Source of the DNA: Candidatus Danuiimicrobium aquiferis
GTDB lineage: Bacteria; Omnitrophota; Omnitrophia; Omnitrophales; Danuiimicrobiaceae
Assembly: GCA_001804285.1 (NCBI GenBank)
Contig: MHFR01000053.1
Span: 79,857-143,856, forward strand
Length of the DNA stretch: 64,000 nt
Reading direction: 5' to 3'
The first letter of the stretch is position 1, and each line of letters starts with the position of its first letter. Below, in pieces: positions 1 through 56,027 of the stretch. A program made the translations under genes and the position numbers. The notes under the pieces were generated by a model that saw only the letters and a program-made list of their open reading frames with translations, was not told the DNA's origin and ran no database searches.

Positions 1-100
1 CGGATATCAACCATCGCAAACATCACCGTCAGCACGCTTGTATAAATTCCAACGACAAGAAGTCCGAACATCGAAAAAATCGAAAAAACGAACGCACCAA
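1..100 (-). other. Hydrophobic (transmembrane-like) segment of the giant protein at the window edge
   Basis: Translation is KKLGLGAFVFSIFSMFGLLVVGIYTSVLTVMFAMVDI, and the ORF continues beyond position 1. Confidence 0.5.
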
Positions 101-3100
101 GACCTAATTTTTTGCTTGCCAACGCATCTTCCACGCCTTCAAGGTCATTCCGTTTCAATGCCTGCATGAACTTTTTGTTTCTTTTTAGTTTTTCATAGAA
201 TTTTACAATCTCGTCGGGCGTTTTCTCCTCATAGATCCTTTTTTCTGTTTCTTGCCGTAGCCACTCTTCTTCGCGTGTTTCCGATCGTGCATATGTTTGA
301 ATAGTTTCCCGGATTTTTTGGGTACTAAAATCGGGGAAAAGGTCTTTGTCTTTTTGATACTGACTAAATTTTTCGCGCCCAAGTAGCACATTTAAATATT
401 GAATTAAGATTGCTTTCGACCCTGATTCCGTCACACCTCTCAATAAAAGATCCGTGACTAACACCGATTCAACGGATTCTCCCTGTCGAATATCGTTCAG
501 TAATTCATTCAGGATGCCGCGAATATTTCGGTTCGGATCGAAATCCTTATCAACAAGATACCGTTTTTGAAGCGCAAGTTTTTCCGTATCACTCCAATCT
601 GTATATTCACTGTAAATTTGATCGTACGCAAACGGCGATGTAAACATGAGCTGCAGGAAATCATTGACCGTTTCAATAATCAAACCGGCCGTACCCTTAT
701 CGCGATCCGGCATTGCTTTTATTTCCTGCGAAAATGCATCATTTTCTAAAACATGAAACACCTCTTCCATTAACATCCGGTGCGGATGTTGCGCTTTTCT
801 CAATTGTGTGCTCAAAGCAATCATTTTTCCGGTGTCTTCCGGGATCCCCAACACTTCGCGCAATTTTGCGGCGGTGATTCCGGCTTCTTTTGCAATGGCT
901 TCAAAATAATCTTTTGAAACGGTCACGCCCGGCAGAATCACGCCGGCGGCGTTCTTCCAAAACTGCTGATCAGCAAAAGTCAGCGGGGTTTGCGACAATA
1001 ATTTTTCTAAATAGTCTTTCCAGCGCGCTTTCTCGACGCCGCTGATTAAATCGAGAGGAAGTGTTAAGGTCGGAGAAATTAAGATCAAGAATGCCGGGTC
1101 GCCGGGTTTCACATTCTCAACAAGGTAAACAGATTCATTCGCTAATATTGTTTTCAAATCGTTACGGGAAGGAATTCCTTCAATGTCTTTCGTCTCGCCC
1201 AAACCGAACCACGATCCCATTCCCCGCACTTCCGAACGAACCTGTAAAAGAATTTCATTCCGTCTGGCTCTGACAAGAATATCAATCACCCAGTTTTTCT
1301 GAGGTAAACTCCAGTCAACACCGCGCGCTCCTCTGTAAATTCCATCAGCGCGCCTTGCATAAAGAATATCTTCCCGGGCTCTTAGGCTCCTAAGCAGTTT
1401 TGTTAAATTTTCCCGGTCTTTTTCGGCCAAAGATCCGAATCTCAAAGTCCGAATCGCTTCTCGTCTCAATTCTTCGCCGGTCATATTGATTAATTCATAT
1501 CGATACGTTTTTAGGGCCGATCCTGAAAATTCTGCCCTCACTTCGGCCCGGGCAGCAACAGGCGTTTTGATTTCCTCCACAATCCAGCCAACACTTTTCA
1601 CCAAATCTTTGGCTCTTTTAAACAAATCGTGATCCTCGGTAAGTACATTTCTGCCCTCTAAGAAAACTCCAAGATCCCCAACTAACGTTTCAAATTTCAA
1701 TAACTGTTCCGAAAGTTTTTGATGTAATGCCGTGAAATTGATGAGTTTCTCTAAATACGCCGTTTCCTCCGGGCTTAAAGCTCTCAGCTTTTCTTTTTCC
1801 GATATTCCCAGCGTATTAAAAATAGAAAAAATTTTATTAAATTCACCGTATCGAGCTATCCAAATTCGGCGTTCTTTTAAAATCGGATCAAATTCCGAAA
1901 TAAAATCGCGGGCCAGTTGAATGTTTGTTTTGAGATTAGTTAAAAGCTTATTGTCATTATCGTGATTGCCAATACTATGACTGCGAATCAAAGCTAAAAT
2001 GCTGGTCTCCGCTCCATCTATTAAAGTCTTAAATTGATGCATGATGAGTCCCACCATCATCTTCCGGACTTCGGCCGGGGGCATGTCCTGAACCGGCGAC
2101 CGCGCTTCGGCCCTCGATACACGCACTTTGGACCGTATCGAGGACAGGTCGCCCGCTTTGATTGATTCCTGCCCTGGCATTCCAAATTCGAGGCGGGCTT
2201 CCGCACGACTACTTGCCGGTGAAAAAGCGGAGAGTTCCTTGTCATCCAGATACAAGTCATCGCCCTGCGGCGTGGGGGCAACCGACCGCGCCTCGGCCCT
2301 GAATTTTGTGTCATCCCCGTGTACGCGGGGATCCAGCAGCTGCCCGCCAAAGGCGGATCCGCCCTTGGCGGAGATTCCCGCCTTTCCGCCCATCAGGACG
2401 GCGGATTCGCCAGTTTGTTGGGTGGACGCGGGAATGACAGAATCTTCTTCCTCTTCAATTTCTCTGATTTCTTCGAGCGCGGCGAGAATATCATTTTCGT
2501 CTATCAGCTGTTCCGGCATCATTTCATTACCCGTCGCGGCTACCGCTTTCAATGGTTTCGCCCGAACCGGCAGACTGACGTTAGGATCAACGGGACTTCG
2601 GATAATCCCGTCTTCCATAATTTTGACATTGTGAATTTCTTCTACGAAGGCTTGAATCGTTGTTTTAATGTTCCTTGCGGTAAAGTTTTGATCATCCAGT
2701 TTCGCAAAACGGCCGAGAAGATTTTCGAAGTTTTGATCGCGAAGATCGGCCGGACTCATCGCGAGCATCCGCCAAACCAATTTGAATTTTTCGCCGGACG
2801 ATACCTTGACAAGGCCGGGATGAGAAAGCAACCGGTTTAAAAAGTTCTGAAATTCCGTGTGATTATAGCGACGGACAATTTGATCACGGTACTGGCTTGT
2901 GTTTTTCCCGATCTCTTCTTTGATTTTGCTTTGAATCTGTTCAAGTGCTCTTCTCTCAGTCCCTTGTATTTCTCTGATCGTGCCCGAATTCTGATGGACA
3001 AAGGGAATTGTGTATTGATGATTCGGATTTTCATCGGAAAAATATTCCGCAAAATCAACAGCTCCGGCAATTAACTGAAGCCAGCCTGAAAAAAGTGCCT

Positions 3101-6100
3101 TCCATCCGGCATTTTGAAGCGCCGGCTGTCCGGCTTTTACCTGCTTTTCAACTTCATCGCTCCACGCCCCGGAGCGGGACCCCAGTGCCCCGCCCGAAGG
3201 AGTACTTGCCGCAACCGGCGGCAAGTGCGCCTCGCTCGAACGCGGCCCCGGAAGAGGCCTCAGCGCCTCATCTGGCGCAGTGCTCGATTCAACCGGAATC
3301 GAGCGCATTTCGTTCCGTGTCCCGGCAACCGCGACAGGCCTTGAAACACCGCCTGTTAAACGAGCTTCATCAAACAATTCTGTCCGCGTCTGTGCGGCAG
3401 ACTTACGGAATTCCTCCGCTACACGATCCCATAAAATCTGATCGTCAACCGTTTCGGTATCAGAAAAACCAAACCACTGTTTCAAACCGCTTCTCACCGC
3501 TTCATACAATCGAGGGTTTGCTTTTTGGTTGATATCAAATAATTCCTGCAACAACCGGCTTTCCGCCGGACCTGCTTGCGATAATAAATAACCCAAAACA
3601 AGGCCGATATAATGATTTGCAAACCGTTGAAGTCTGACGGGATCATCTGTGTCATGGCGCAAATAAACGCCGTTTTCGATTTCGGTCCTGATATTTTCGA
3701 CTGCGAGTTCCCCGGGACGGTCAAATCCAAACTGAATGGCATGATCAATCTCGCTGTCTGAAAACCCCGGCCGGAACATTTCCCGGATTTCGCTTCGTGT
3801 TCTATCTGCAAGCACACCCAATTCTCCGAAACTTCGGGTACGCCCGATGATATGATAAACGTCGCGGCCCGGAAGAATTTGCGCCAGTCGTCTGACCGCC
3901 TGAATCGCCTGTCTGGCTCCGTCTTTCTGATCAGGCCGAACATAGCCCAGCGCGGTGTCCAAAGACGCATTTCCAAAATTTGTATCGACTGTTCCGTTGG
4001 CCCGCAAATTCATTCCGAAATAAGCTTGAAGTTCCTCAAGCCCGTTCATTTCATCAACATCAGGACGTTCGATAGAAGGCTGATCGGTTTTTCCGCCGGC
4101 ACGGTGATGAATTGATTCGTGGAACTCGGTTTTTTTCATCGGTCTTTCAATCCGGCCACCGGGATGATTAATATTTTGCGTCAAAAATGCGTATGAACCG
4201 ACCGCGCGAAAATAATTTTCCTGAGTCCCGTCTAATGTCTGAATCCGTAAAGGTCCGTATGTACCGGGATCGTTCATGAAACCTTGCGTCGAGCTTGTCT
4301 GGAAAACTCCGTTTTCCCGTAAATATAAAACTGCTTCTGCCGTCAGATGAATGTATCCCGCGTAATGATCGCGGATCCCGTTGGCTTTGAGAAAATCAGC
4401 GCCGATTTCCGGAAATTCGGAAAGTTTTTGGACTCCAATTTCGCATCCTTGGAATACATCGATTTCAGTCTCTGACGGTTCCCGATTTAACATCGTATGC
4501 GCAATAAGCCTGACTCGCTCGCGCGGAGTCATCCGGGAAAGTTGTTTCGAAGCGCGTAGACCGTCTTGATTGATTTTTTTCATCCGGGTCCGGACATTAA
4601 TGGCCTCGCGGACCGTAATTTGCTGGGAAGGAATTTGCGTAGCCGGTTTTGTCTGCAGGGTAGACGATGCCGAAGCTGATTTGGAAGAAGCAGGCGGTGC
4701 GAGGTCGGATGCGGTATGCGTTACGGGAGAAAGGCTCTTGATCGCTTGCGCGAGCGCGGCCGGATCGTTCTTCAGGGCCGGCGTCCGGGCCACAAGCGCC
4801 TGAGCCGCAATTAAAATATTCAAAAATCCATGAATCCGGTCAAGTTCAGCCTGTGTTTGTGCGGACAGAACGCCAAGAGCGCCCGCTTGATCCGAAGCAA
4901 TAATAATAACCAGTTCGCCTGTTTGCGGATGCCTGGCCAATTGATACCGGTAACCGCCCGCTCTCAATTCGTTCCCGGAAACACCATCGATAAAATCCAA
5001 ATCATCAATCATGTCAAATAAAATACCGGCCGCCGCTTGAAGTTCGGCCCTGACCATGTCGGCTCCCAACGGGCCCGCTCCCGGCATCGCCATAATCCGC
5101 GCTTCGGAGCGCTCATCAAGTGGTGTTTGAGCCGCTTGAGGACCAGTTTCCTGTACTTCTGTTAGAACTCTGGCCCGCATCCCAAGACTTACCGCACTTC
5201 CATCAGGAGCGAACTCAAATACGAAATGTCCTTGGCCATCTTTTACCGCTCGGCCTTCCGCTGACCGCTTAATGCCGTAGACAGACTTTACAGCAGAGTC
5301 TATCTTTCTTCCGTCGTCATCAAGCAAGATTAAATCTCTCCCATCAAACTCGTACCGATTACCACTTTCTCCGTCCTCTATTCGATCCCCTTTCTGCAAT
5401 CCTCGAAGCAATTCAATCCCCGATTGGCGGGCTTCTTCTATCGCTTGATTCGCTGCCTGCGTCTTTTTTACGCCTTGCGCAATCAGCTCATCCCTTCGTT
5501 TCGTTGTACGATCATCCCCGTCAAATTGCGCCCCCTGAAGAACGCGCGATGTTCCAGCGCCAGGCACTTCTGAACGACCGCCGGCATCCGCAGGAACCAT
5601 TTCACTATTTGGAAAAACTAAAATCTTGACTGCCTCACTTCCCCAATCCTGCCCTATGCGGGCCGGCATTAATGCCCCATCGGACGGATACCAATTATAA
5701 TAAGGCATAAAAAACATTTTCCCGATACTGAGTTTCCCCAGCACTTGAATATTTTCAGGATGAACTAAGTAATATCCCCCTGGCCGCCCTCTCATCCAAA
5801 CTTTAAATCTCCCGTCGGCTGTGCGTTCAAGTACATACTCTAAATCATGCGTAGAAGAACGAATCAACACCTGGTCACCCGGTTTCAAACTATCAAGATC
5901 AAGTTCGTTGACCTCTCGTCCTTTATTTTCATCAAGCTCGGGAGTTGGCTCCGTCAAACTTCCTCTCGGATGTAACGGATTCTCCGGCTCATCACGCATT
6001 TCCTTCTGAGCGGGCATCGCGGCTACCGAGGATGTCTTGACCGGTGCAACCACATCCGTTTTTGTGGAACCCGGTAAAGGCCCCGCCTTACTCTTGGCCT

Positions 6101-9100
6101 GATCCGCCAACTTTTTCACCAATTCACGCCGGATGGCTTCCAGTATTTTTCTTTGTTCCGCCATTGTTGTTCCAAAGGCTTTGGATGGTTCTGGATATTT
6201 TTCTAAGGCTTTTATTATCACCTGGAAAATTTTCGCCAACGTGCCCCATATCGTGAGATCCTGATGCTTCATAACGTATAGATAACCATCAAAATCGCTT
6301 AGCGAAATATCCTGAATATTACTCATGAGATCATCTGCGACCTTCGCTGCCAAATCGTTATATTCAGCCGAAATACTCTCCCCGGATGAAAATGCACTCA
6401 GAATTTCTTCGATCTTTTTCGCATAACGCCCGGCCACTCTGTTTGAAGCACTATGAAGTTGCTCTCGCACATCTGTTAAATCACCCCTGCTTTGCGCAAC
6501 ACGAATAAAATTAATAACGGCCCAGGCAAAAGCAACTTGCGGATCATTGGCTTCTATTGTTTGCTGCTGCAATTCGTTTAACAATTTTTCTATATCCCGG
6601 AGATCACCTTCCGAAACAGTTTTTCCCTGCAATGCCAGAGCTGCAGCCAATAGTCCCTCAAGCATTCTTTCCATCTTGCGGGCAGTTTCCGGATTAGATT
6701 GCGTCCTGTTTTGAGATGCTAACGGCAGCACAACTTCAGCAGTTTTTGTTGCTTCTGCGGTAGATGATTTTTCTTCCACTCCTCCATCTTTATTGCCAAG
6801 AGATTCCTTCTCCCACTCTCCGGCTTGATTTTTCCGATGCGCAACCAAATTACCATCCGAATCGATTTCAAGGAAGCCTCGTCCTCCCCCGTATCTTTCA
6901 TAAAGACCCACATCGACATTGACGCGCGATGCATTCGGGCTGGCAACAACGGGTGAATCCGCCTCTGGCGTGTGACCGAAAATTTGCCTCATTTTCCCTG
7001 CATCGACCGAGTCCATCACCCCGCGATTCCAAAAGATTCCATCCTCCCCAAAAATGGCGTGAGAGAAATTCTTGCCTGAAATCGCCTGCTTCAATATTTC
7101 ATTAATATGGTCAGCTATTTGTTTTTCGGTCACCTGCGAAGGATCAATGCCCAACTTTTGAGCAATCTCCTTAATCAACTGTTTCCTTATCTTCGATCTA
7201 GCTCCCGCATGCGTAAACACCTCTCCATGAAGCTGTTCGGCCGCTTTCAAATGATCATTCATAATGTCCTCTAACATTTGATCAACTATTTCTCCATAAA
7301 CTTCTCTAATGGCAGCCCGAAATCTTTGTGGATCGTCGCGAAATTCTTCAAACACGGCTCTTTGCTCCGTGGGCAAATTACGCCACCACATAAATAGCGC
7401 ATCATCGTCACCCAACATGCCCTCTAACAACATCAATTCATGATTCCCAATTAAACGCACAACATCCCCGCCGGCCTGTTGCGCTTGCCTTTTAAGACGC
7501 CTCAAGAATTCAATCGCCTCTTTTGATTTCGGCCCGCGATCAATCACATCTCCGACTTGCACAAAAACAGCGTCTCCGCCAATCCAATTTCCGTTTTCAT
7601 CAATCAATCCCGCCTGTCGCAAATCTTCTTTTAAGCCATCCAATTCTCCGTGAACATCGCCATGCACAACCATTCGAGGTTGTTTTTTGGGTATTTGTCT
7701 TTTTTCCGCAGGTTGTCGCGTGCCTTCTGCGAATTTTTCAGTTGAAGGAACTGCTATTTCTTCACCTGTCTTGCGCACTTCAGAACGCCTGCCTGCCGTC
7801 TGTGTGGCGGGGGCGGCGGGTAGCACTTCCCTAAACATTTCGCGCAATCTGTCCGACTGTTCTTGTAATGCCGCTTTCAAGTTCGGATCCTCGTCAGCCG
7901 GAATAAGTGACGGAAGCGCTTCATAACCGGCAATGAGCTGTCCAAACATATCCGCATTTTCAATTCCCATTTGTTCTAAATTAAGCCCCGCCGTTAACGC
8001 TGCATCGATTTCATCTCGCAGATTCCGGCCGACATCAACCGCTTCTTTTTGAACATTTTCACCGGCGGCTGCACGATCCTTCAACGCCTGCGCGCGTTTG
8101 GCATAATCAACAGCACAGGCGGAACATGAGGTCAAGATTGCTACAATCTCGGGCGCAATTTCATTCAACTGGCTTCCGAATTTCCGGAGAAGCGCTTCCA
8201 ATATTTTTGCCTTATAGTCATTCCGTTCAGCCCCGTGAAGCGGCCCGCCCTCGGAAACGAGCGCGCTCAGTTCCGCCCGCACTTCAGACCGGCTTAATTC
8301 ATCCGAATGTTCGATTTTACCAATGATGCCCTGCGTCGCTTGATCTGCTGTTTGATCCCCGACATAATCTTTCAATGCATTTAAATACATCGCCAAAAAC
8401 GAATCCATAATCTGACCCGGATCTTCGACAATCAGCTCTTCCAATTCTTGCGCATGCTCAAAAACACTTTCGGGAACGCCTTTCGTCAAAAATTGGCTTA
8501 GCGTCACTCCGGCCAAATGTGGCGCAAAACGATGCGGCCCAAAGTCTGTCGCCTTACGGAATTGGGCCAACCGCTCGGGAGTAAGCGTCCTGACCAAGAA
8601 CTCAGCCGCCAATCCGATCTCAAACAACCTTTTCATAATTCTGAGGTGAGCCAATCGTTGTGCTTTCATCCGCGCCTCTAACGCGGAAATCACTTGCTCG
8701 ATTTGCGTTTTACTCTCTTCATACAAGTCCGCATATTCGATCTTTAACTGCCGGTATTGAGCTAAAAGTGCTCCGTCTTTTTCTGACAACCGCGCCGAGA
8801 GAAATTTGCCGTACTCAATTAAAGCGGCACCCAACAAATCAAATAATTTTTTCAAGGCAAAATTTTGGGTGGAAATATTTTCAAAATAATCTTCGCCGAA
8901 TAATAGGACGCCCGAATGTTTTGCGGAAATCATCCGGTTCATCTCGTTGTTAAATTGCGCGGAAGGTTTGGCTTTGCCGGCCCCCATCACTTTGATTTCT
9001 AACTTGCCCGTTTGCCAATCAGAATCGCCAAAGATTTCCCGCTTTTCTTCATCGGTTAGATGGATATCAACACTTTCTTCAATATTGTCCTCTACAATAA

Positions 9101-12100
9101 TGAGGATATCCATATCTTGCGCATTATAATGATCAAACCCCGCAATGGTCCCGGGGCCCCAAATGTAACTGCCTTTAACGTTGATCGCGAGAATTTTGTG
9201 GCCGATCTTCTTCCTTAGAAAAGCCGGCAACCGCTCGCGGATAATTTCGATGCGGCCTCTTACTTCGTCTTTGGCTTCATCCGTCAGGCCGTGCCAATAC
9301 CAGTTCCGTTTTTCCAAATCTTGTTCAATGTCTTTCATCGGACGGCCGATTTCGCGCTCTTGCGGGCTTCTCCCTTTAAGGCGAGGCGCCATATACCGGT
9401 CGTGCTCCGGCATGTCTATCAATTGACTGAGTTGATCGTCCAACGCAGCGCGCAAAATAAAATCCTTATCTCCGTCCAACAAAGTCATGAGCGCTTGATA
9501 CCCTCGCTCAAGCTGTCCAAACATATTAAGATTCTGAATCCCCATCTGTGACAGCGTCAGGCCGGCTTTGAGCGCCGCCTCTATTTCCGTTTTTAAACTT
9601 TGAGCGATATCAAGAACTTCGCCGTGAACATCTTCCCCTTGGCCCGCCCGTTTGGCTAAATCCGATGCCCGGTTCGCATAATTCACGGCGCAGGAGGAGC
9701 ATGAGGTAAGAATTTCCGCAATCGCCGGCGCAACGTCAGTCAGTCGAGACCCAAACCGCTCGATCATTTCATTTAAAATTTGCGCTTTTAAATCATTATG
9801 CTTTTCACCGCGAAGTTCGCCTCTCGCCCCCACTAACAACCCCAACTCCGCTTCCAATTCCGGAAGATCCGATTCCTCTGCCTGCCTAATCCGTTCGAGC
9901 ATCTCCCTCGCAGCAATTTCGGCACTGAACACTTTTTCGAGCACCGCCTTGATTCGATTGGAATCACTCAATCCTCTTTCCGCGATTTTACGAACCATCT
10001 CGTCATAAGTTGCCTCGTCTTTATCTGCTTCCAATTCATTCAGTTCTTTTATGATTTCATTTTCCGCCATAAACCTTTCATAATCCCCTGAGGTTTGATA
10101 GCCGGAATCAAACTTAACTTCTTCTGCCTCAACCAAGTAAACTTTTTTTCCGTTTTTACGCGCATTTTCCATTCCGATGGCACCGATTTTTTTCAGCTCA
10201 TCCGCGCTCACTTCTCTCAGTTTAAGGTTCTTCAAACGGATGGCGTGTTCGTTTGTATGGACATTGACATAAATAGCATTCGGATCGGCTCCGATATGCT
10301 TCTCTGCGTCCGGATTGATCTCAAAAGAAAATACAATAATGTCACCGGTCGGCAATTGAAGACCTTCCCCCCCATCGTAAGAAAGAAGGGGCACTTGAGA
10401 CGCATAAACACCCTCACCAAAGGCGTTTGCAACCCCCGGGTAAATTACAATTTCTCCGCCTTCGACAATTTTCGACTTATCAATCCCGGAAACGTGATAG
10501 ACTGTTTTATTCCGACCGGATAAGAAATCGATTGCACGCATTAATTGATTTCTATACTCATCTTCCATGTTTGTTGCTATTTGAACCAAGGACTCCAGTT
10601 CCTTCGCTAATTCATCAACAGGCATTGTGTTATACGTATTAAGTAAAATTTCTAATTGCACGTGAGCGCGCAAACCCTTCAATTTTCGCTCAACCCGAGC
10701 CGCGTCTTCGCCTCGTCCCGTGCTTTGGTAGTATTCAATTAATTCCTTATATTTAGCCTCAGCCCCCGGCCAATCCCAGTTTTCGCCGCGCGTTTTCGTC
10801 GCCTGTCGATCCGCAATTTTTTCAATATTAGCGAAAATGCGCTCCAATTGCGCTGCCTTCTCTCTGGCCATTTGGGTTCGCAAAGCAGTTAGTTGCGTCT
10901 GCAATTCGGTTTTTAATTTTACATCCAACCCTTCGATTCCGTCGAGCGCAAGGTACCCTGCAATGAGCTGATCAAGCACGCCTGATGTTTCAATTCCCAT
11001 TTGAGGGAGTGACAATCCGGCTGCCAATGCCGCTCCGATTTCTGATTTTAAATTCTCCGCGACTTCGCGGGCTTCTGTCGCCACATTTTCGCCGGCGGCT
11101 GCACGATCCTTCAATTCCTGTGCGCGTTTGGCATAATCAACAGCACAAGATGAACAGGAAGTCAGAATATCTTCAATCGCCGGTGCAATTTCCGAAAGTT
11201 GATCTCCAAATTTTTCAACAAGCGCTCGCAAAATTTCCGCTTTTTGATCATTCGCTTCTTCGCCGCGAAGCGCACCGCCTTCTTTCACAAGCTCTCTGAG
11301 TTCCGCTTCAATGGATATAAGGTCCGCCTCATTTGCTTTTTTAATCCGATCGATCATCTGATCGGCAGCCACTTGCGCTACCGTCATTCGTTCTGCAAGG
11401 CGGCTGTCACTCATTGTTTTCAAAGCACCCTGAGAACCCGACTCTGCAGAAGATAGAGCCGCCATAATTGCCGGCGAAATCCCTGAAAGCGCCTGGCCGA
11501 ATTTTTCTTTGAGTGCATTTAAAATTTGTGCCCGGCGGTCGATTTGCTGACCACCAGAAAAATACGCCTTTAAAAAATAGTCTAATTTCTTTTGAAATTC
11601 GTCTAATCGATCTTGTTGTAATGTCTGGATTTCCTTGACGAGTTCCGCAACTTTTGCATCCAGCTCACGATCGGGATAGGAAATACCGTTCGCAATTTCT
11701 GTTCCGTTTGAGTCATAGAGCTGATATTCCACCTTCTTTGAGACATCGCGCTCCATCGGCCCGGTCGCTCGAACCACAAAGCCATTTTCGGAAAGAATTT
11801 GTCCCAACCTCGGAATGGCTTTCTTTGCGTCTTCCGCGGTATAATATTTTGTATAGATACCGTCAATCAGCACATTCGCCACAATAACCATATCGACTTT
11901 CCCCACAAGGTCGGCACGGCCGGCATTTTTCAAGCCTTCGTTCACATGAAATGCATCCGCAAGCGCGAATTCCATTTGAATTCCGGGCAAGGTTTCTTTC
12001 GATAATTGTTTGCGCGCAGAATCAATATATTGTCGGTTGTTATCAAATCCGATCATGACAACGTTCCCATATCCGGAATCCCGGAGAGAACGCGCAAGAT

Positions 12101-15100
12101 CAAAGGTCGTGGGCGCACCTTTTTTCCCGATTCCGTAATCGGCAATGACCAGTAAATCATTTTTGGACTTTCCCTGCTGCCGGCGCAGTTCCTCAACGCG
12201 AGCGATCATATCCCGATGAAGGGGCGACAAACGTCCCTGCCATGTCACCCCGGGTGTTTGATCAGAAAGCGAATCTTTTTCACCGACGAGCCGGACAAGT
12301 TCATCAAGACGGGCCCTTAACCGGCTTAATACATCCGCAGATTCAATTCCAAACAGTTGCGAATTTTTCAAAATCTGGTCATAAAGATCGCGGGCAGCCT
12401 CCAATTTTCCTTCTTCGGCCAATTGATTCGCTTGTGTCACATTTTGAATATTCAACGGGTAATCTGCCGGCACAGGTGCTTCAGTCTCACTCGCATTAAT
12501 GTCATCCCCACGAAAGTGGGGATCCAACTGGATTCCCGCCTTCGCGGGAATGACAGAATTCCGGACTTCGGCACGTTTGGCTAACATTTTGTCCGCCAAA
12601 GTACTCTCGCGCGTTCCGATTAATACCTGGTGAGAACCACTTTCAAGGTTACGCGCTTCGGAGCGAACAGCCTCAGTAGCCCTTGTTTCTGCTCCTTCCA
12701 CCAATTTAAACGGAGCAATCGCCGGAATTTTGACTGGAATACTGATCGCAAAGGTGGTGCTTTTTTCTTTTTTTCCTGTTTCCGGATTAATCACCTCACC
12801 CGAATCAATTTCAAGAACACCGTTATATTTCCCGATAACAGCGCGAACATTTTGAAGTCCCTGCCCCCTCCCCAAGGCCCCTTTCGTTGTCAGCGGAATC
12901 CCGCTCCGGATCTGCCGCAAAACATCCGCAGACATTCCTTTTCCGTTATCTTTCGCAACTAATCGAATCGATTGTTTTCCTTCTTCCGAAAGTTCGAATG
13001 TCGCTGAAATTTGAATTTCAAAATCGTCTTGTCCTGCCTTTTTTGCATCCCGTGCATTCTGAATTAAATTCGTCAGCAACACATCCAAATCCATCACGGC
13101 AAGCCCTGAATCCAACCCGATCTCCCAAGTCATTCTGACATACGGTTCTCGCCTTGCCCAATTAAGCAAAATGTTTAATTCCTCTTCTTGCGGCAATCTC
13201 TGACCTGTTTCCAGTCTTTCAAGCGTGTCCGCAAATCTTTTTGTTTCGTCGAGCGCACGCTCTGTCCAATCAATATATAGTTGGTCGTTCTCCTCGCTTT
13301 GAATCTGGTATTTTTTCATGAGCGTTAAAACAGCTTCGCCAAATTGCTCTGCTTCCCGGATTGCCTGCTTCGTCACCTCGATTAACACGATTAAATCGTC
13401 TATATATTCCGGCTGAAAATGGGTTTCTGTATTAACCGAACTGATCGTCTGCAACAGCATTCTTCCGTAATCAATCGCCTGAGCGCCTTTTGGTTTGAGC
13501 TCTTCATATCGGGCTCTGTCTTCCGGCGAAAGCGCCTTCTTCTCAAATCCGAAATAACGCATATTGGTAGCGGCCTTCCAAATATGACTTAAACGATGGG
13601 TAAAATCTCTTTGCGGCCAGCTCATATATTCGATAATTTCTCTCAACCGAACCTCATTTGCTCGAAGCGCTGCATTTTTATATTGATCCCGTTCGGTTTC
13701 GGGAACCAACGTATCAATCAATTGTTTAAACCGGTCTTTGGGTGTGACAATTATTGAAGGACTTTCAGCCACCGTTGTCCGGCTCTCCGATCTTGCTGTC
13801 TGCTGGACTTGACCTTCCCGCAGTTCCGAACGAGAAGTCTGTTTTTTCTGCCACTCATCAAGGTTAATCACCATTGTGTATAATTTTTTTCCATCCACCG
13901 TGTCTATTGAAGAAACTACCCGTGCAGTATGATAACGCCAAAGCTTGCGGCCCTGTTCTGTCACCGAATTAATTTGAACCTCCGTCAACCCCATGGTCAC
14001 GAACCGCTCAAGAAAACGGATTGCCAATTCATTTGCGACGGTTGTGCTTCTGCCCGCTAATTCGATGGGAAACGAACGTGCCGAATGAATTTGTCCTTTA
14101 GCAATGACGTGTTCTGGCTTTTTGGGATCAACCGCATATTCATAACGATGAGCGCCTACAAGTTCGCCCGAAGGTGTTTCAATATAGTCAACAAAAGTAT
14201 TCGGACGCAGACCTTTTAAACGGTCACGTTCGAAACCAAGAAAATCATTGACCCGATCAAAAAGAAATTGATTATCAACCTCTCCAATTTTCCAGCCACC
14301 TTGATCGCTCGTGCGCGCCTCCGTCCTTGGTTGAGCGGTCAGATCAGTCAAGGACGGAGCGCCGGTTGTTTTGATTAAATTCGCTTGGGAATTATTTTTT
14401 TCGAAGCGCTGCTCCGAACGGAATTCAGATCGCGGAAGTTTTTGGATGGCCCGGCAGTAAAAATTTTCTGCCGCGGGCGCCGCGGAAAAATTTCCATCGA
14501 CAATGTCAGAATTATGATCAATAAATTGAATTTCATTCGTATCGTTTTCAAACGCCGGTAAAAGGCTTAACGAGGCATCCTCTAAAATAAAGTGGACCTC
14601 ATTTAATATTTGAGCCGCCAGGACAGCGGCCGGATTGCTTTGTTTTTCTTCCTCCGCAAGGGCCGCTGCTATTTCGAGTCTTTTTAGAACACGGTTTTTG
14701 TTTTTGAGAATGCTTTGTCCGTTTACCGATAATGAAATTTGATCTCCGTCAATCTCGAGCAGGTTTAATTGATTGAACAGCAAATCATAAAGAGCTTGAA
14801 CGGTCTTTTCTTGTTTTAAAACTTGTTGGCCGGATTCGGTGAAAGAAAATGTCCGTCTGAGCAAATCTTCAGCTGTGTCGGGAGAAGACGCAAGCAACAT
14901 ATCTATCATCCTATTTTCTCCAGTTCCTATCGGATTTGCCGCGTCCGGAGCTTCAACAGCAACCATCTTGAGAATCTCCATACGCTCGGGAGTTTCCGGG
15001 GCAACCAATAATGTTTGGATCCCACGCGCAAAGGCGGCAAGGTCCGCTCTCGCCTCCGTGCGAGCGGCAATGGCAGCGGTTTTGGTATCAGCGGAAGCAG

Positions 15101-18100
15101 GTTCATAAATCCTGACGTATGATGATTCCTGTTGACTATCCATAATCGGAGGATCGAACGGGTTAAGATTCCGCAACTTTTCGAACTGATCGATCCTAAG
15201 CCCGCTGCCCATAAATGCTTCGTTGAAGACCATGACCAATTTCGTGTGTCCTGCAAATTCAATCATTTTATCCGTAAATTGGCGGCGGAATTGTTTGATC
15301 ATCCGTTTGGTCCTGGCCAAATTTTCCTCATCGCCAGGCTGAGTATAATAAAACATCACAAAATCTTTATCGCTCCATGGTACCTGAAACGCATCCTGAG
15401 GCGCTTCTGAGTAATGAAAACGCAAGGGGGCAATGATCCCTGCTTCCACAGCCCGGTCATAGAGGAATTGGCCATCACGATGAAATGCGGGATCGATCTC
15501 CACGGCTGTCACTTCCATGCCGAAAACCACGTGAGCCACCAAAGAAACAATTAAGTTCGGCCCCGAACCCATATCTAACAAATGTTTTCCGCTCAAGTTC
15601 CCGTACCGGTCGGATAATTGTTGAAATGCTTCCTGCAACATGTCAACGGAAGTCGACCCGTAACGGGTTTGATTTGCAGTCAACCGTCCATCTTCCACCA
15701 GCAAAGACATCTTTAAAAGACCTTCGACCGTCCGCATTCGATCTGCCAGCAGCGAATTGGGTGCAGTCACCGAATTTGCAACCTCTCCCACCCTGGGTTC
15801 AGCAGTTCCAGAAATCATCGCCTCTGCGCGGGCTTGAATGGCATCCCGAATCTTCGGCTGATTTAAGAAATGCCGCAGGGTCGGGCCGGCGTTGATATCA
15901 TCAAGCTGGGTAAGAAGCGATTGTTGCGGAACGAAAAAGATTTTCCAGATTTCGCCGCGGCCGGTCGTTTTCCCTGTTTCGTCGGTTTGCTGTTTGTCGA
16001 GACTTTGAAAATGGTTAACTTCACCTTCTGAAAGGGACGCATCCAACGTTTCTTTTGTTTTCTGAATCATGGCAACTTCTTCCGGCGTCGCATGGTAAAT
16101 ATAAATCGTCTTTTTTTCCTGATCCTTCGCTCGAGCTGCGGAAAATTCTCCATCATGACCGATACGTTCCCATTTCCCTTTTAATACGTAGCCCGCTGGG
16201 AAACCCAATTCTTCGACTAATTCTTTCTTGATCGCCTGGTCATAGCGGAAATCCTCGGATACGTGACCGCCATAAATATTTGCTGTGCGCTGCGCCGGAT
16301 CCTTATTTGTACGCTCCAACATGATAAAATTCCCGTCCGGCGTCCGGACAAACGCATTCGCCACCCGATGGAGAAGCTGTTTTCCTTCCGAACCGTCATT
16401 TTTTGCCTTCACCTGAACAACGCCGTTTGGCCCGTAATATAAATGTGCAAGGTTCCGGTCAAGAGAACCGAGAACTTCATCCGCTTGGGTGACGACATCA
16501 ATCATTTCGCCGCTCAATTTAACCTGCCCGGCTTGAATTAAATTCAAAACAGCGTCGACATGAGCCGCAGTCAACGGCGTGTCATTTTTCGGATTGGCTA
16601 TAATTGTTTCTAACTGAACCTTGACTTGTTTAGCCGTCACCCTCGCTTCCGCACGCCCAGCAAAAACAGAATCGGGGACAGGTTCTGGTTTCGTTGATGC
16701 AGAACCTGTCCCCATTATTGAGGCGAGGTTGCGCTGCTTCGCACGCTGGCGGGCAATTTTGAGAACTTCTTTAATTTGCTGATACGGAAGCCCTTTGGTT
16801 TCTGCTTCGATTTTTCGGATCACGGCATCATCCCCGACAAGTGTTTGACGTGCGTCGAGAAATTGTTCATACACGGCCAAACGGTCAAGCAATGTTTGAG
16901 CGGGAAGTTTCTCAAGCTCTTTTGCTTTCGCCTGAATTTCCTCAAATGAAAGCTCTGCGGGTTCCGCCGTTTGTTCGATCACACCTTGCATATCCGGCAC
17001 CAGCGCGAGCGCGGTGGCAAGGTTCGAATTGGAAACGCCGTTGACGCGGCTGACTAAGCTGCCGACGGATTCAGCGTCGATTTTGCCGCTTTTCCACATG
17101 TCTTTGAGGCCCTCTCCAAGGACTTCAATCTTTTTCGACATGAGCGCTTTCAGCTTACCGAAATAATTTGAATTGAAGGATTTGAGTTCCCGTTCGAGGG
17201 CTTGACGGAGGTCGTTGTCATTCCCGCGAAAGCGGGAATCCAGAGACTGTAGATCCCCGATTAAAGCATTCGGGGATGACAAAGAACCCTGCCCCGCGTC
17301 TCCTGCCCCTCCCTCCTGTTCCTTCCTCAATATCTGCACAAGCGCGTCCACATATCTTGTGTAAGAACCGGCTTCGGTCACTCGCCCTTCGGCGATGGAA
17401 TTCTGGATAATCCGGTCGCGCCAGCGTTTGAGGCTGGGTGTGAGTTCTTCGGTTTTAAGAGACGCGGCCATTTTCGCGGCATAATCTTTTGCGAGCGCGT
17501 CCCAGAGGCTTCCTTTGAAATATTTCATATAGGACATATTGCCGCGCATGACATTCATGTAATTCTCTTTCGTCCCGATCTCGCTGATTTTGGGCGCGAT
17601 GAGCGCGTAAGAAATACCGGCTGATTTCATTTTTTCTTTGATGCCTTCCGAATGGAAACCGCCGGTAACGATCACCGCGATCTTCGCGTTTTGACGGTCC
17701 ATGGTTTTAATAACGTTTTGGAAAAGCACTTCGTCACGCTCGAGCGCAAGTTCGTAGAAGCGGAAGTGCGGCTGGAAAAGAGTTACGAGGTCACTGGACA
17801 CTACGTCACTCGTCACTGGTGTAAAAAAAGGCGGGTGCTGTAACGCAAAAATAGTTTTGGGGTTTTTGTCATCCCCGTGCAAACGGGGATCCAGCCGGAT
17901 TCCCGCTTTCGCGGGAATGACAGAATAACCTCTTCGCAATGACGCACTATCTTTTTCCGGTGACTGGTGACCGGCGACTAGTGGCTTCACCTCTTTCCAC
18001 TGTTCATGCGTAATTTCCAGTTTCGCGAAATCGCGGAAAAGTTCCAAATCATAGAAACCGGAAACCAGTTCTTTCTCCTCTGCCGTTTTCGGAAGGAATT

Positions 18101-19949: not shown

Positions 19950-21155
19950 TTATTTCCTAAAGTTTTCTATCACGATAGAGGCGTTTCTTAAAAGCTGCCT
20001 GCGAGTTGCACGCGAAATAGCGGAGTCGGAAAACTTCTCTTTATATTCTCGATTGGTTTTGATGGCAAGTAACTCATTCAAATCAAGGCGGGAACCGGCA
20101 CCGGAAGTCGCTTTAAATTCTTTCCAGCGGGTTTCTTTCTGCTTCGACGTGTAAGGACAAACTTCCAAACACCGGTCGCACCCGAATATCCGGTCACCGA
20201 TCTTGGGCTTCAATTCTTCGGGAATCTCATTTTTATGCTCAATCGTAAGGTAAGCAATGCATTTACGCGCATCCATCGATTTATTTTCTCCGATAGCGCC
20301 TGTCGGGCATTGATCAATACATTTTCTGCACCGGCCGCAATTTCCTTCGATTGGCCGATCGGGTTCCAGCTGAAGATTCGTCACAATTTCCGCTAAAAAC
20401 AACCACGGCCCGAATTCCGGGGAAATAAGCTGAGACTGCCGTCCGATAAATCCAAGCCCGGCTTCGACGGCCAAGGAACGTTCGAGAAGCGGCTTTGTGT
20501 CTACGCATGTTTCCAAATGAATATTCTTGGTTTGCAGCGAACAGGCATGCCTGTTCGCTGCTACGACATTTTTAATTTTCCCAATCAATTTATTTAATTT
20601 TTCCGAAATGATTTTATGATAATCTTTTCCCCATGCGTAACGGGCGACACGGCCGGATGGCACCATGTTCGTAGGGGCAGACCCATGTGTCTGCCCTGTA
20701 CTGCTGTCATCAAAAAAAGGGGACAGGTTCTGGTATAGCGGCATCAGAACCTGTCCCCTTTTTTTGTCAGAACTCGGGCGAACACCTGCCTCGCCGGCAG
20801 GCGGGCGCGGGGTCGCCCCTACAGTCGCCCCCCCCGTCCAATAATTCACCCCGAGAACAATCACATTTTTTGCATCCGGAAACTCTTTGAAAAATTTTTT
20901 CTGCCGCTCCGGATATTCTTCAAGATAATGCATTCCACCGTGCTTCCCTTGGCGAATCCATTCTTTAAGATAAGATTCTTCCGCAACAAGCATCCCCTCA
21001 CCCCCCGCCTGCCCGCCTGCCGGCGAGGCAGGGAATTTCCCCTCTCCCTTAGGGAGAGGGTTAGGGTGAGGGGAAATATTAATATTTGTGATTCCGCAAG
21101 CGTCGAATCCGGTATCAAGTGCGAGAGATTTGATTTGACGGGAGGTGATACTCAT
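19950..21155 (-). CDS. queG: Epoxyqueuosine reductase QueG, carrying two in-frame MITE insertions
   Basis: GMHYLEEY and RYAWGKDYH signatures. CGRCRKCIDQCP and CDRCLEVCP [4Fe-4S] motifs. Insertions encode NISPHPNPLPKGEGKFPASPAGGQAGGEG and GGATVGATPRPPAGEAGVRPSSDKKRGQVLMPLYQNLSPFF. Confidence 0.85.
   Translation of the reverse strand: MSITSRQIKSLALDTGFDACGITNINISPHPNPLPKGEGKFPASPAGGQAGGEGMLVAEESYLKEWIRQGKHGGMHYLEEYPERQKKFFKEFPDAKNVIVLGVNYWTGGATVGATPRPPAGEAGVRPSSDKKRGQVLMPLYQNLSPFFDDSSTGQTHGSAPTNMVPSGRVARYAWGKDYHKIISEKLNKLIGKIKNVVAANRHACSLQTKNIHLETCVDTKPLLERSLAVEAGLGFIGRQSQLISPEFGPWLFLAEIVTNLQLEPDRPIEGNCGRCRKCIDQCPTGAIGENKSMDARKCIAYLTIEHKNEIPEELKPKIGDRIFGCDRCLEVCPYTSKQKETRWKEFKATSGAGSRLDLNELLAIKTNREYKEKFSDSAISRATRRQLLRNASIVIENFRK
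20712..20870. repeat. GGGGACAGGTTCTGGTATAGCGGCATCAGAACCTGTCCCC element plus a CCTGCCTCGCCGGCAGGCGGG palindrome, in-frame inside queG
   Basis: Palindromic repeat-family members. They encode about 50 extra residues between the QueG GVNYW and RYAWGKDYH motifs. Confidence 0.75.
20994..21072. repeat. CCTGCCCGCCTGCCGGCGAGGCAGGG palindrome plus CCTCTCCCTTAGGGAGAGGGTTAGGGTGAGGGG element, in-frame inside queG
   Basis: Same families as 18828..18870 and 25592..25686. Confidence 0.75.
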
Positions 21156-25591: not shown

Positions 25592-25686
25592 AACCCCTCA
25601 CCCCTGCCCTCTCCGCTTCGCTACAAGGACTGCCTGTAAGAGTTTGGACTGCCCTCTCCCCGAAGGGAGAGGGTTAGGGTGAGGGA
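25592..25686. repeat. CCCCTCACCCCTGCCCTCTCC ... CCCTCTCCCCGAAGGGAGAGGGTTAGGGTGAGGG palindromic element
   Basis: Family shared with 18828..18870, 20994..21072 and 30614..30636. Confidence 0.75.
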
Positions 25687-47417: not shown

Positions 47418-48776
47418 TTAACGCCCGCCCGTAGAAAGATCTAAAATGGGCATAAACATTGAAACGACAATGACTCCAATAATTGCCCCCATAATGACCA
47501 GCATAACAGGTTCTACGGCTGTCGCCAACCTTTGTAATAATGTATCGACTCTTTCTTCATAATATTTAGCGACCACCTCCAGGAAGCGGTCCATTTCTCC
47601 CGCCTCTTCACCGATACTAATGAGCTGCGTCATAAAAACAGGAAAAGTTCTTTTTGATTCCAATTGCCCGCCCAAACCATGCCCGCCCCGGACTCCTTCT
47701 CTTGCAGATAAAATCAAAGCTTCAAGCACGGAATTTTCGACCAATTTCCCTCCGATTGTAAGAGACTGAAGAATCGGGACTCCGGAACGGATCAGCGTTG
47801 TAAATCCCCTGCAAAACCGCGCGACTGCAACTTCAAGATTTAAAGCCCCCACAATTGGTATTCTCAATTTAATTAAATCAAGAATAAATTTTCCTTTAGA
47901 CGTTTTTCCCACCATAACAAAAGAAGCAATAATCGAGGCAACTCCTAACGCAACCGCAACCGTATACTTTCTGAGTATCTCGCTCGCCAAAACCACAAAT
48001 TGAGTAAGCGGTGGCAACACCATGTTTTGAGATTTAAAAATATCCGCAAATTTCGGAACGATCTTAAGCAGCAGAAAAGATAAAGCCGCAGTTGCTAAAA
48101 CGCTTAAAACAATCGGATAAAAAAACGCGGAAATCACCCGACTTTTAAGTTTTGCTGCAGATTCCTGATACCCAGCAATTTCAGAAAGAACTTGCGGAAG
48201 ATTTCCGCCCATTTCACCCACTTCAATCAAATTCTGCCAAATCGGAGGGAACACTTTCGGATATTCACTTAACGCATAGCTTAAACTTAACCCCATGCTT
48301 AAATTTTTAATACACGCCTTAAGGATGTCTTTAAGATAAAGATTGTTAGATCCTTTTTGGATAATTTCAATTGAACGAATAAGCGGAATACCGGCTTTTA
48401 AGAGCGCTGAAAGCTGGACGGCAAATGAAATAAGGTCACGCGTAGATACGTGATAAAATAATGGGGTTAAAAAATTGCTTTTCTTTTTTTTGGTCTTGCC
48501 AAAAGCCGATTGTTCGTTTGATTCAGAATCACCTTTTTCAAGCTCATCAACCTGCGATCTATTTCCAAAACCAAAATAACTAAAAGAGGCTTTACTTTCC
48601 TCCACCGAAACAATCAAATATCCGTCTGCCTGAAGTTTCGCGATCGCATCTTCTTTACTGTTTGCATCAACGGTTATATTCTTAACTTGGGTGGAATTAT
48701 CGCGATCACGCACACGGCACTCGAATTGCTTTTTGTGAGGGCTGCCGTCTGGAAATTTGGGAAATGGAACAGCCAT
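47418..48776 (-). CDS. pilC: Type IV pilus inner-membrane platform protein PilC (GspF family)
   Basis: Two GspF repeats and three TM helices. Confidence 0.8.
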   Translation of the reverse strand: MAVPFPKFPDGSPHKKQFECRVRDRDNSTQVKNITVDANSKEDAIAKLQADGYLIVSVEESKASFSYFGFGNRSQVDELEKGDSESNEQSAFGKTKKKKSNFLTPLFYHVSTRDLISFAVQLSALLKAGIPLIRSIEIIQKGSNNLYLKDILKACIKNLSMGLSLSYALSEYPKVFPPIWQNLIEVGEMGGNLPQVLSEIAGYQESAAKLKSRVISAFFYPIVLSVLATAALSFLLLKIVPKFADIFKSQNMVLPPLTQFVVLASEILRKYTVAVALGVASIIASFVMVGKTSKGKFILDLIKLRIPIVGALNLEVAVARFCRGFTTLIRSGVPILQSLTIGGKLVENSVLEALILSAREGVRGGHGLGGQLESKRTFPVFMTQLISIGEEAGEMDRFLEVVAKYYEERVDTLLQRLATAVEPVMLVIMGAIIGVIVVSMFMPILDLSTGGR

Positions 48777-48808
48777 GGTTTTATTCCTTTATTTCTTATG
48801 CCTAATAA

Positions 48809-50518: not shown

Positions 50519-50558
50519 TATTTTTTATGAAGTATGATGTAAGAGGCATGAAATAAGA

Positions 50559-50930
50559 TCAGGAATAATTGCGCCAAGCGCTGTGCAATTTGAACAGTTT
50601 GGCGCCTAACTCCTCATAGCCTCTTAAAAAGCTATCATGCTTCTCTTGTGTTAAGTAATGACAGTCCAATGAAAATAATAACCATGCTTTCGTCTCTTCA
50701 AGTGATCCGATCGCATCGACCAAATGCCGTTTGAAAAGACTTACATATTTTCGTTTTCCCCAGCCTTCGGCTATATTAACAGCAACAGAACGGGATGCCC
50801 GAAGAATTTGATCAACCAAAGAATATTTTTCTTCTTTAGGAAAGATTTTGCTTATTTCAAATATTTTCATCGCTAAATTATGAGCCAGTTGATATACTTC
50901 CAAATCCAAAAATGTTTTAATCGTTTTCAT
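50559..50930 (-). CDS. Four-helix-bundle protein (TIGR02436 / 23S rRNA intervening-sequence protein family)
   Basis: MKTIKTFLDLEVYQLAHNLAMKIFEISKIFPKEEKYSLVDQILRASRSVAVNIAEGWGK matches the characteristic family pattern. Confidence 0.75.
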   Translation of the reverse strand: MKTIKTFLDLEVYQLAHNLAMKIFEISKIFPKEEKYSLVDQILRASRSVAVNIAEGWGKRKYVSLFKRHLVDAIGSLEETKAWLLFSLDCHYLTQEKHDSFLRGYEELGAKLFKLHSAWRNYS

Positions 50931-51195
50931 TATTATTCTAACAGTTATTTTGGACTTTCTGCTTCCTGTTTCTTACTCCTGATTAAAAAGATACATGATG
51001 TTCTTAAGAATTGCTACAGTACGGTTAAAAAAATACAACAATCGTTTTTCTCCGGCGCCTGCTTTCTTCTTTTTAAATATCTTAACCAAGTCTTGAAATA
51101 AAAGGGAACATGCACTCTAAGCACATGTCCCCGCTTTTCTTACTTCATACATCCTGCTTCTTACTTCTATTCAGCCTTTAAGCTTGTACCCCCCC

Positions 51196-53034: not shown

Positions 53035-53076
53035 AATGATTCCTTTTATCGTACCCTTTCTTGCTCCTTTACTTCA

Positions 53077-53637: not shown

Positions 53638-53697
53638 GCCCGCATGCTTAAAGCGGGCATCCACAGTTTCTGGATTCCCGCTTTCGCGGGAATGACA
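53596..53697. repeat. 75-nt repeat (TTTAGCGTTTTGAAGTGGCGAACACGCCATGTTCGTGTCATGCCCGCATGCTTAAAGCGGGCATCCACAGTTTCTGGA) plus ATTCCCGCTTTCGCGGGAATGAC
   Basis: Near-identical to 32255..32328. Confidence 0.8.
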
Positions 53698-53821
53698 AAA
53701 AAACAGATGCTCTTTTACAGATAATCGCTTCAAAGCGCTAAACAAATACGAGCGTTTAGCGTGTAGCGTATATTGAATTTTATTGGTCATGTAAATATTT
53801 TTTGCCATTGAGAAGGTTGCG

Positions 53822-55911: not shown

Positions 55912-56027
55912 TATTCGACTCCTTAATCCCGGGCTAAGAACATAAGAGCACAAGCGCACAGGAACACAAGTTTGAAATTTCATCTCTTGTGCACATGTGC
56001 ACTTGTGCTCTTGTGCACTTTATGAAT

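Follow-up and report, generated by a model that had tools for sequence, protein, structure and literature searches.

Candidatus Danuiimicrobium aquiferis (Omnitrophota) encodes a giant protein that carries an ancient threefold repeat: three full copies of a helical module, together with a decayed half copy, are set between different enzyme-like segments, and each full copy keeps a pair of cysteines (CxxC) in a protein that is otherwise strongly depleted in cysteine. The gene lies on the minus strand of a 64,000-nt stretch of contig MHFR01000053.1 (assembly GCA_001804285.1, positions 79,857 to 143,856 of the forward strand; hereafter the window), in a frame that is open from position 19784 to beyond base 1 and comprises at least 6,594 stop-free codons. 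An earlier reading of the window, made from its letters alone (the sequence-only reading), had noticed the repeats and taken them for a recent triplication; the analysis reported here finds the triplication to be old. Our best overall reading, which we hold at slightly less than an even chance, is that the threefold repeat and its decayed half copy form a helical scaffold between enzyme domains and that the CxxC pair is redox-active.

Copies, boundaries and relatives of the module

The giant protein was cut into chunks of 200 aa, which were compared all against all; a BLASTP comparison of the whole protein with itself gave the main diagonal only. The chunk comparison returned three related segments, at aa 2802-2975 (copy A), aa 3301-3458 (copy B) and aa 3808-3986 (copy C), and a weaker partial match just upstream of A. 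Pairwise E-values between the copies are 2e-44 (A/B), 9e-55 (A/C) and 9e-49 (B/C), at 51-56% identity over 150-180 aa, and a profile built from the three and searched back against the giant recovered A, B and C plus a half copy, A0 (independent E-value, iE, 3e-9). A0 corresponds to the N-terminal half of the module only, and stops at the place where the CxxC would be expected (..AALSSAES). At the level of DNA the gene contains direct repeats of 290 nt (70% identity, spacing 3030) and a 59-nt block present in three copies (71-73%); the copies differ by insertions and deletions, and their flanks have diverged. From these similarities we conclude that the three full copies are homologous.

The sequence-only reading had proposed three complete copies and a partial one without cysteine, and the pairwise E-values, the profile search and the DNA repeats bear this out at roughly the places it gave. 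It had also suggested comparing the gene with itself, and internal repeats were found both by the chunk comparison and as direct repeats in the DNA; the consensus it quoted is correct (K.A.IL...FG.QL.EIAP.I..ILTSCS[SA]CAV[DN]YA.RA...QMGI...QL..GY.AL). Three of its details need revision. The gene is on the minus strand; the module, which had been put at ~130 aa, measures about 175-210 aa by its boundaries; and the interval assigned to the partial copy (11330-11560) takes in only the end of A0, which itself occupies 11439-11645, and runs into the beginning of A. A possible fifth, Cys-less remnant ('LHSASNRVAGRYAKKIEEILSAFSSGESISAEY', giant aa 4440-4486, window ~6327-6467) follows the phosphatase domain downstream of C; with an hmmsearch iE of 0.015 and an hhalign probability of 3.6% it was not counted.

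Outside the giant gene no relative of the module was detected. Pfam, PADLOC and PHROGs gave nothing significant on it (PADLOC had no match at all, and the PHROGs match falls on the phosphatase only), and NCBIfam gave only a weak match to TIGR01926. A word-indexed search of 5.8 billion proteins yielded 0 relatives, as did scans with degenerate patterns of 185,579 GTDB species genomes and of JGI metagenomes, and 80 loci from related genomes contained no match either to the module or to the 832 aa at the center of the repeat region. When 1.84 billion cluster representatives were searched exhaustively with a HMMER profile, three matches came back, none of them an independent relative: two are repetitive false positives (RTX-like and fibre-like) that sum weak scores over many repeats, and the last is a piece of the giant gene itself, 58 aa that coincide with part of copy A, from a 1-kb contig that is chimeric. 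On that contig (JGI 3300009031, Ga0103682_10203213) positions 574-738 (165 nt) equal window positions 10901-11065 and the flanks are unrelated, the 58-aa 'protein' being spurious. Among PDB sequences no natural protein scored below E = 0.5, and below that value stand only de novo designed helical proteins (best E 2e-4). Judged by these searches the module is an orphan without detectable relative outside the giant gene, and it is lineage-restricted. The sequence-only reading had not recognised the module and had proposed a search of metagenomes for standalone homologues; no known family matched across the libraries, and the pattern scan of JGI metagenomes found no such homologue. Of helical scaffold families, the HEAT, TPR and adaptin models of Pfam are silent at E <= 10 on the modules and at E <= 5 on their flanks.

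Age of the copies

Read from the letters alone, the copies had seemed to be either products of a recent triplication or sequences that gene conversion continues to homogenise. Synonymous sites speak against this view: in all three pairs they are saturated (pS 0.71-0.77, with dS >2 or not computable; Nei-Gojobori), whereas dN is 0.39-0.45, giving dN/dS of 0.18-0.21 between copies. For the three pairs, most codon-aligned windows of 20 codons in the conserved core have 50-70% of their nucleotides in common, third positions agree in 30-50% of cases, and A compared with C at a fixed offset of 3030 nt is ~56% identical over the module. Because synonymous sites are saturated, the triplication must be ancient: it is old, not recent, and all three copies are maintained by purifying selection. 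It is also unlikely that the window represents an assembly consensus of diverged strains, since the first 2,809 aa (window-ORF numbering, ORF standing for open reading frame) are 99.96-100% identical in five independent public assemblies of the locus, the Rifle aquifer metagenome-assembled genome (MAG) GCA_001804245.1 being one assembly that carries it.

One short tract shared by A and C is a different matter. Over 65 nt the two copies are identical at 61 positions (94%), with a longest exact match of 26 nt, and where they encode the same amino acid they use the same codon in 18 of 21 cases within the tract, against 51% overall (permutation p = 0.006). No comparable tract of conserved codons links copy B to A or to C (permutation p 0.36 and 0.57). 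A short gene conversion between A and C would be the simplest explanation of this pattern, and the tract may thus record a micro-conversion event later than the triplication itself. The interval that had been called near-identical (8058-8170 against 11088-11200) is identical at 90 of 113 positions (80%), and the description holds only for its part within 8053-8117 and 11083-11147. Gene conversion is therefore plausible for this one tract but not as a force homogenising the module as a whole. With saturation in every pair, with B standing apart, and with insertions, deletions and diverged flanks distinguishing the copies, we give hardly any credence to a recent origin or to ongoing conversion, the single 94% tract with its 26-nt exact match being what speaks for that view.

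Fold, cysteines and possible role of the module

An AlphaFold2 (AF2) model of copy C, with the three copies as alignment, is all-helical with seven helices (predicted local distance difference test, pLDDT, 89.9; predicted template modelling score, pTM, 0.85). We thus take the module to be, on this prediction, an all-alpha helical-bundle domain of about 180-210 aa. Searched with Foldseek, the model has no PDB or BFVD match at E <= 1e-3, the best TM-scores being 0.3-0.5; its nearest neighbours in the PDB are mostly designed helical repeats (TM 0.3-0.4, E >= 0.01), with TPR and 14-3-3 folds also among them. The structure prediction that the sequence-only reading had recommended for the module thus returns a confident helical model and no fold match.

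In the model of copy C residues 87-90 (S-C-S-A) form a turn after a long helix (53-86), and C91 opens helix 4 (91-107), so that the CxxC is predicted to cap the N-terminus of a helix at the turn into helix 4. In known redox-active CxxC motifs, whether of thioredoxin-fold or AhpD-like proteins, the first cysteine belongs to a turn and the second to the opening turn of a helix. The modelled CxxC has this geometry.

The cysteine content of the giant makes the pair conspicuous. There are 10 cysteines in the 6,594 aa (0.15%), against a mean of 1.26% in the 34 other ORFs of the window (binomial P about 2e-24), and six of the ten make up the three CxxC pairs; the remaining four include one ahead of the called start and one within the signal segment. 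Although identity between the three copies has fallen to 51-56%, neither cysteine of the pair has changed in any of them. Because a protein purged of cysteine has kept both of them in all three diverged copies, the CxxC pair probably matters for function.

The same observations bear on the possibility that the module is a purely structural helical linker, its cysteines being incidental survivors with no chemistry of their own. The de novo antiparallel coiled-coil bundles that are the best PDB sequence matches of the module core would fit a linker, as would the designed helical repeats that Foldseek ranks first and the prevalence of helical scaffolding in Omnitrophota giants. Set against this, cysteine is depleted ~8-fold in the giant, yet both members of the pair are invariant in the three diverged copies, and the one copy without cysteines, A0, is also truncated and decayed; a mere linker is on balance quite improbable. 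HEAT, TPR and adaptin-N scaffolds resemble the module in being helix-only, repeated and placed between catalytic domains. They differ in that the module is a unit of ~180 aa rather than a repeat of 34-47 aa, that an invariant CxxC is found only in the module, and that the TM-score is only 0.3-0.4, with no match to a HEAT or TPR hidden Markov model (HMM).

A second possibility is that the CxxC is a pair of metal ligands, either for a zinc ion shared by two modules, of one chain or of two, in the manner of the Rad50 zinc hook or for two-coordinate Cu(I) or Hg(II) in the manner of MxCxxC metallochaperones, and that it cross-links or stiffens the giant. The Rad50 zinc hook carries its CxxC at the tip of a long antiparallel coiled coil, where two helices meet, and the AF2 model of the module likewise puts the pair where two helices meet (53-86 and 91-107); moreover, the local [TS]-C-x-x-C resembles the heavy-metal-associated (HMA) motif, and just two cysteines are conserved per module. 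Those two are the only conserved cysteines, however, and the module has no invariant His or further Cys with which to complete a site. The copy number is odd, the predicted seven-helix bundle has no strands and is neither a long coiled-coil hairpin nor the beta-alpha-beta-beta-alpha-beta fold of HMA domains, and no HMA or Rad50 HMM matches. A metal site is thus improbable. Of the two functions that had been offered for the paired cysteines, metal binding or a redox/disulfide switch, redox chemistry is the one that we would favour over a metal site.

A third possibility is that the module belongs, as a far-diverged member, to the AhpD-like/carboxymuconolactone-decarboxylase (CMD) superfamily, that is, a thiol peroxidase-related or disulfide-relay domain with its catalytic CxxC on a helical hairpin. 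Members of this family share a two-helix hairpin with a five-residue proton relay, Glu-x11-Cys-x-[His/Tyr]-Cys-x3-His (PMC3141380). TIGR01926 ('peroxidase-related enzyme') ranks first in NCBIfam for copy C and picks up two copies of the three (E 0.012 with the copy alone, 0.002 in a long fragment). The module reads [E/D]-x11-C-x-x-C-x3-Y where the family relay reads Glu-x11-Cys-x-x-Cys-x3-His, and the AF2 model places the CxxC at the turn of a helix-turn-helix. An hhalign comparison with Mycobacterium tuberculosis AhpD (its sequence validated against 1GU9) puts the CxxC on Cys130/Cys133 and Tyr95 on His137, over 14 columns only. Compared with AhpD-like proteins generally (M. tuberculosis AhpD, 1KNC/1GU9; Pseudomonas aeruginosa PA0269, 2O4D; TIGR01926), the module is likewise all-alpha, its CxxC starts the second helix of a hairpin, an acidic residue stands 12 before the first Cys, and a conserved aromatic or ionisable residue stands 4 after the second.

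Much tells against this kinship. The TIGR01926 matches score 15.4-17.9 bits against a cut-off of 81.8; Pfam CMD (PF02627) and TIGR00778 do not match even at E <= 10; hhalign gives a probability of 2% whether the module is set against the single AhpD sequence or against an alignment of 119 AhpD sequences (among the matches listed for it, all are mycobacterial AhpDs of ~80% identity); and no AhpD-like chain appears among the PDB sequence matches at E <= 10 or among the top 50 Foldseek matches in the PDB. Two of the five relay positions are unmet in all three copies, the inner His/Tyr being Ser/Ala and His137 being Tyr. AhpD, further, is a free oligomeric enzyme of ~180 aa, whereas the module is embedded three times in an exported giant, and the similarity of the two reaches significance neither in sequence, nor in profile, nor in fold. 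A regex scan of 1.56 Mb of retrieved loci for a CMD-type gene that might have served as a better seed found none. Because Pfam CMD, the PDB profile searches and Foldseek lend no support, we do not file the module in the AhpD/CMD family: descent from an AhpD-like ancestor is hinted at by the sequence and, as a full account, is rather unlikely. As an analogy AhpD would still be the most useful working model for the CxxC hairpin.

The position of the modules suggests what they might do. Along the protein the order is methyltransferase-like segment, A0, A, alpha/beta segment, B, GS...DMD segment, C and phosphatase, and the modules start ~490-515 aa apart. We infer that the module would be a recurring scaffold or spacer by which the enzyme domains are kept apart and in position, and that its CxxC would be a redox-active dithiol/disulfide. 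An N-terminal signal-like segment, read by eye, implies that the bulk of the giant is exported. After Sec export out of the cytoplasm the CxxC might be oxidised to a disulfide staple, and it could be reduced again wherever conditions are reducing, for instance inside a host or prey cell. The pair would then act as a redox switch or as a thiol-disulfide relay, possibly AhpD-like, rather than as a metal site.

In a bolder version the module would be an undescribed redox-switch domain, one per effector: a disulfide outside the cell whose reduction in the cytoplasm of a host or prey cell frees the adjoining enzyme domains. Reduction would loosen the bundle and unmask or release the methyltransferase-like, nucleotidyltransferase-like and phosphatase effectors, and the long retention of the copies would follow from there being one switch per effector. 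This we regard as a long shot. MARTX-type multi-effector toxins offer a partial parallel, in that they are very large exported proteins in which unrelated enzyme domains are separated by recurring non-catalytic sequence. They differ from the giant, in which no RTX repeats, cysteine protease domain or homology to them were found, and delivery of the giant into another cell is conjecture.

Several points weigh against the reading of the module as an ancient scaffold with a redox-active CxxC. The scaffold role is drawn from position and fold only, and the AF2 alignment behind the fold consists of three sequences, the other four models having pLDDT 75-80. With three paralogues only, conservation of the CxxC is statistically inseparable from the overall column invariance of 38%, and for a comparison between species no orthologues are available. 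The outside-versus-inside topology rests on a signal peptide read by eye; enzyme domains that need ATP, S-adenosylmethionine (SAM) or NTP would be odd outside the cell unless delivered into another one; and no partner oxidoreductase was identified. The copy number, finally, is a lower bound, because the C-terminal 2,745 aa lie outside the data.

The giant protein and its surroundings

Two public ENA contigs (ERZ4903125 k141_3601312 and ERZ4903137 k141_2702823) carry the same locus, and on these the gene is called as a protein of 9,320 aa that starts with a GTG (window 19727). The window covers the first ~6,575 aa from this start; the C-terminal rest of ~2,745 aa falls outside it, past the window start. 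Besides the features in Table 1, a hydropathy scan shows transmembrane-like segments near aa 6231 and aa 6559.

Table 1. Features of the giant gene and of the nearby secretion-like cluster (window coordinates; residues of the giant protein).
Feature	Position	Strand	Residues	Basis or remark
Giant ORF	1..19727	-		open from 19784; GTG start 19727 from gene callers on identical public contigs
Predicted signal peptide or signal anchor, VANTSDKSILICRRLIAIILVITFTLTNFTFTPS then ..SVYA/ES	19626..19727	-		hydropathy scan; topology by positive-inside rule
NUDIX hydrolase domain	16038..16373	-	1138-1249	Pfam E 1.3e-5, 25.6 bits > gathering score 21.1
GHKL ATPase domain (HATPase_c)	12729..13091	-	2232-2352	Pfam E 5.5e-10
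SAM-methyltransferase-like Rossmann segment	11736..12107	-	2560-2683	Pfam Methyltransf_31 E 7.5e-5, 22.9 bits < gathering score 27
A0, degenerate Cys-less half copy	11439..11645	-	2714-2782	matches module profile positions 15-85
Module copy A	10860..11402	-	2795-2975 (weaker similarity to ~3007)	chunk comparison and profile
CxxC of copy A, CSSC	11145..11156	-	2877-2880	
A/C tract, partner in copy A	11083..11147	-		94% identical to 8053-8117
Beta-containing globular segment between A and B	10095..10517	-	3090-3230	sequence; strands in low-confidence AF2 model
Module copy B	9411..9932	-	3285-3458 (weaker similarity to ~3499)	chunk comparison and profile
CxxC of copy B, CSSC	9690..9701	-	3362-3365	
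Pol-beta-type nucleotidyltransferase-like motif between B and C, KGSYIWG...QDMDILIIVED	9087..9179	-	3536-3566	motif level only, by eye
Module copy C	7827..8384	-	3801-3986 (weaker similarity to ~4007)	chunk comparison and profile; AF2 modelled
CxxC of copy C, CSAC	8115..8126	-	3887-3890	
A/C high-identity tract in copy C	8053..8117	-		65 nt, starts at second Cys codon; candidate micro gene-conversion tract
Calcineurin-like (PPP/NinI-type) metallophosphatase, downstream of C	6828..7673	-	~4038-4319	Pfam, PHROG, NCBIfam
Type II secretion system (T2SS)/type IV pilus-like cluster (T2SSF, T2SSE ATPase, secretin, PilM-like)	47418-55983	-		~28-36 kb from giant gene start

That the modules alternate with different catalytic domains, as the sequence-only reading had it, is correct in so far as the segments differ: the segment upstream of A0 and A is methyltransferase-like (E 7.5e-5, below the gathering score) and that downstream of C is a phosphatase (E 4e-9), while the nucleotidyltransferase is a motif seen by eye and has no HMM match. 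For the phosphatase the scores are E 3.6e-9 to 6.8e-9 (Pfam Metallophos), 8e-18 (PHROG 246) and 6.5e-6 (NCBIfam Ser/Thr phosphatase). The segment between A and B contains, by eye, an H..Y..E pattern (YHVSG / GEGVYAS / FSFEI) reminiscent of ADP-ribosyltransferases at the level of motif. Neither of the two inter-module segments has an HMM or PDB sequence match, and a protein search with the central 832 aa (aa 2976-3807) returned 0 homologues. An AF2 model of aa 3005-3810 from the single sequence has pLDDT 42.7 and some strands, and no fold search was made from it; because this model is of low confidence, the ADP-ribosyltransferase-like and nucleotidyltransferase-like readings stay at the level of motifs.

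Four further observations concern the giant itself. Directly after A and B, and not after C, stands a motif N-W-[DY]-W-[PH]-G-x(1-2)-[DE]-[AE]-x-K (aa 2999-3014 and 3491-3506; window ~10743-10790 and ~9267-9314), which may mark the junction to the next globular segment. Around the phosphatase (window 6285-7826, giant aa ~3987-4500) there are sub-threshold Pfam hints of a WipA-like phosphatase domain (E 0.019), WipA being a Legionella effector family, and of DUF2267 (E 2e-4). Another internal repeat pair, at aa 113-194 and 360-429 (window ~19203-19446 and ~18498-18705), spans ~80 aa at 37% identity and includes 'KGTG[SF]DSIEPEPVPFS'. A stretch of 21 aa recurs at aa 621-641 and 2410-2430 with 76% identity, 1,800 aa lying between the two.

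The class to which such a protein may be compared has been described: multi-enzyme giants of the 'Archaeovorin' type are known from Omnitrophota (West-Roberts et al. 2023, bioRxiv 10.1101/2023.11.21.568195), and a 'multi-enzyme' class of giants has been defined in which scaffolding is helical (HEAT/adaptin-like) and internal repeats are the rule, these being ancient rather than recent (Nielsen & Lui 2026, bioRxiv 10.64898/2026.06.07.730766). Giants so described combine NUDIX, methyltransferase and HATPase_c domains with scaffolding that is helical, frequently contain old repeats, and have T2SS-like loci nearby (bioRxiv 10.1101/2023.11.21.568195; 10.64898/2026.06.07.730766). The host protein fits these Omnitrophota giants, its closest match, the likeness being one of described features rather than of sequence comparison. 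It has a length of several thousand aa, an N-terminal membrane or signal segment and later transmembrane segments; NUDIX, HATPase_c, methyltransferase and phosphatase-type domains set apart by helical regions; a T2SS-like cluster nearby; internal repeats, old by their nucleotide divergence; and an Omnitrophota affiliation. It differs in that its 9,320 aa fall below the focus of those studies (at least 10-30 thousand aa), that no SecA-DEAD, glycosyl hydrolase or HEAT Pfam match was found in 6,594 aa, and that the repeated unit – an orphan CxxC bundle, not in Pfam – figures in neither paper. Ancient internal repeats and helical scaffolding are thus already known for the class; what is new is this domain, with a conserved CxxC in a giant purged of cysteine.

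Around the giant gene lie housekeeping genes of the chromosome (QueG, Nth, PolX, an MqnC/CofH-like radical SAM protein, IspG, NadA and ThiC, with a DUF1570 protein), and the closest relatives of IspG are 73% (a MAG of an uncultured bacterium) and 74% (a Candidatus Omnitrophota MAG) identical to it. The idea that the giant is a polyvalent protein of a conjugative element was set aside: 5 kb of the region had no match in a plasmid database, and the neighbours are chromosomal. Between 34000 and 42000 a block of plus-strand genes has a G+C content of 36-39%, against 45-50% elsewhere, and encodes an ABC exporter, an asparagine synthase and glycosyltransferases of families 2 and 4; the block might have been gained by horizontal transfer as a surface-polysaccharide island. 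A palindromic mini-repeat (CCCTCACCCTAACCCTCTCCC..GGGAGAGGG..GGGGTGAGGGG) lies in frame in two ORFs, at 18810-18880 (giant aa ~300-325) and at 21000-21075 (a QueG-like ORF), where it encodes 'PHPNPLP[RK]GEG...GEG'; a third copy of its core stands at 25665-25678, and the core pattern occurs 5 times where 0.39 occurrences would be expected. The mini-repeat resembles an element of the repetitive extragenic palindromic (REP) or miniature inverted-repeat transposable element (MITE) kind that is tolerated inside coding sequence.

The giant proteins of Omnitrophota are a recognised gap in knowledge, most of their sequence being without annotation or tested function. Since no orthologues are available, and the module is lineage-restricted and its mechanism inferred, the value of the present finding is that of a lead rather than of a result. 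An old repeat kept by selection agrees with the recent claim that repeat architectures in Omnitrophota giants are ancient, and a unit of ~200 aa that could be produced by itself, that is conserved in three copies, that is modelled confidently as helical and that contains every conserved cysteine of a stretch of 6,594 aa would give a handle on how these giants are organised or regulated.

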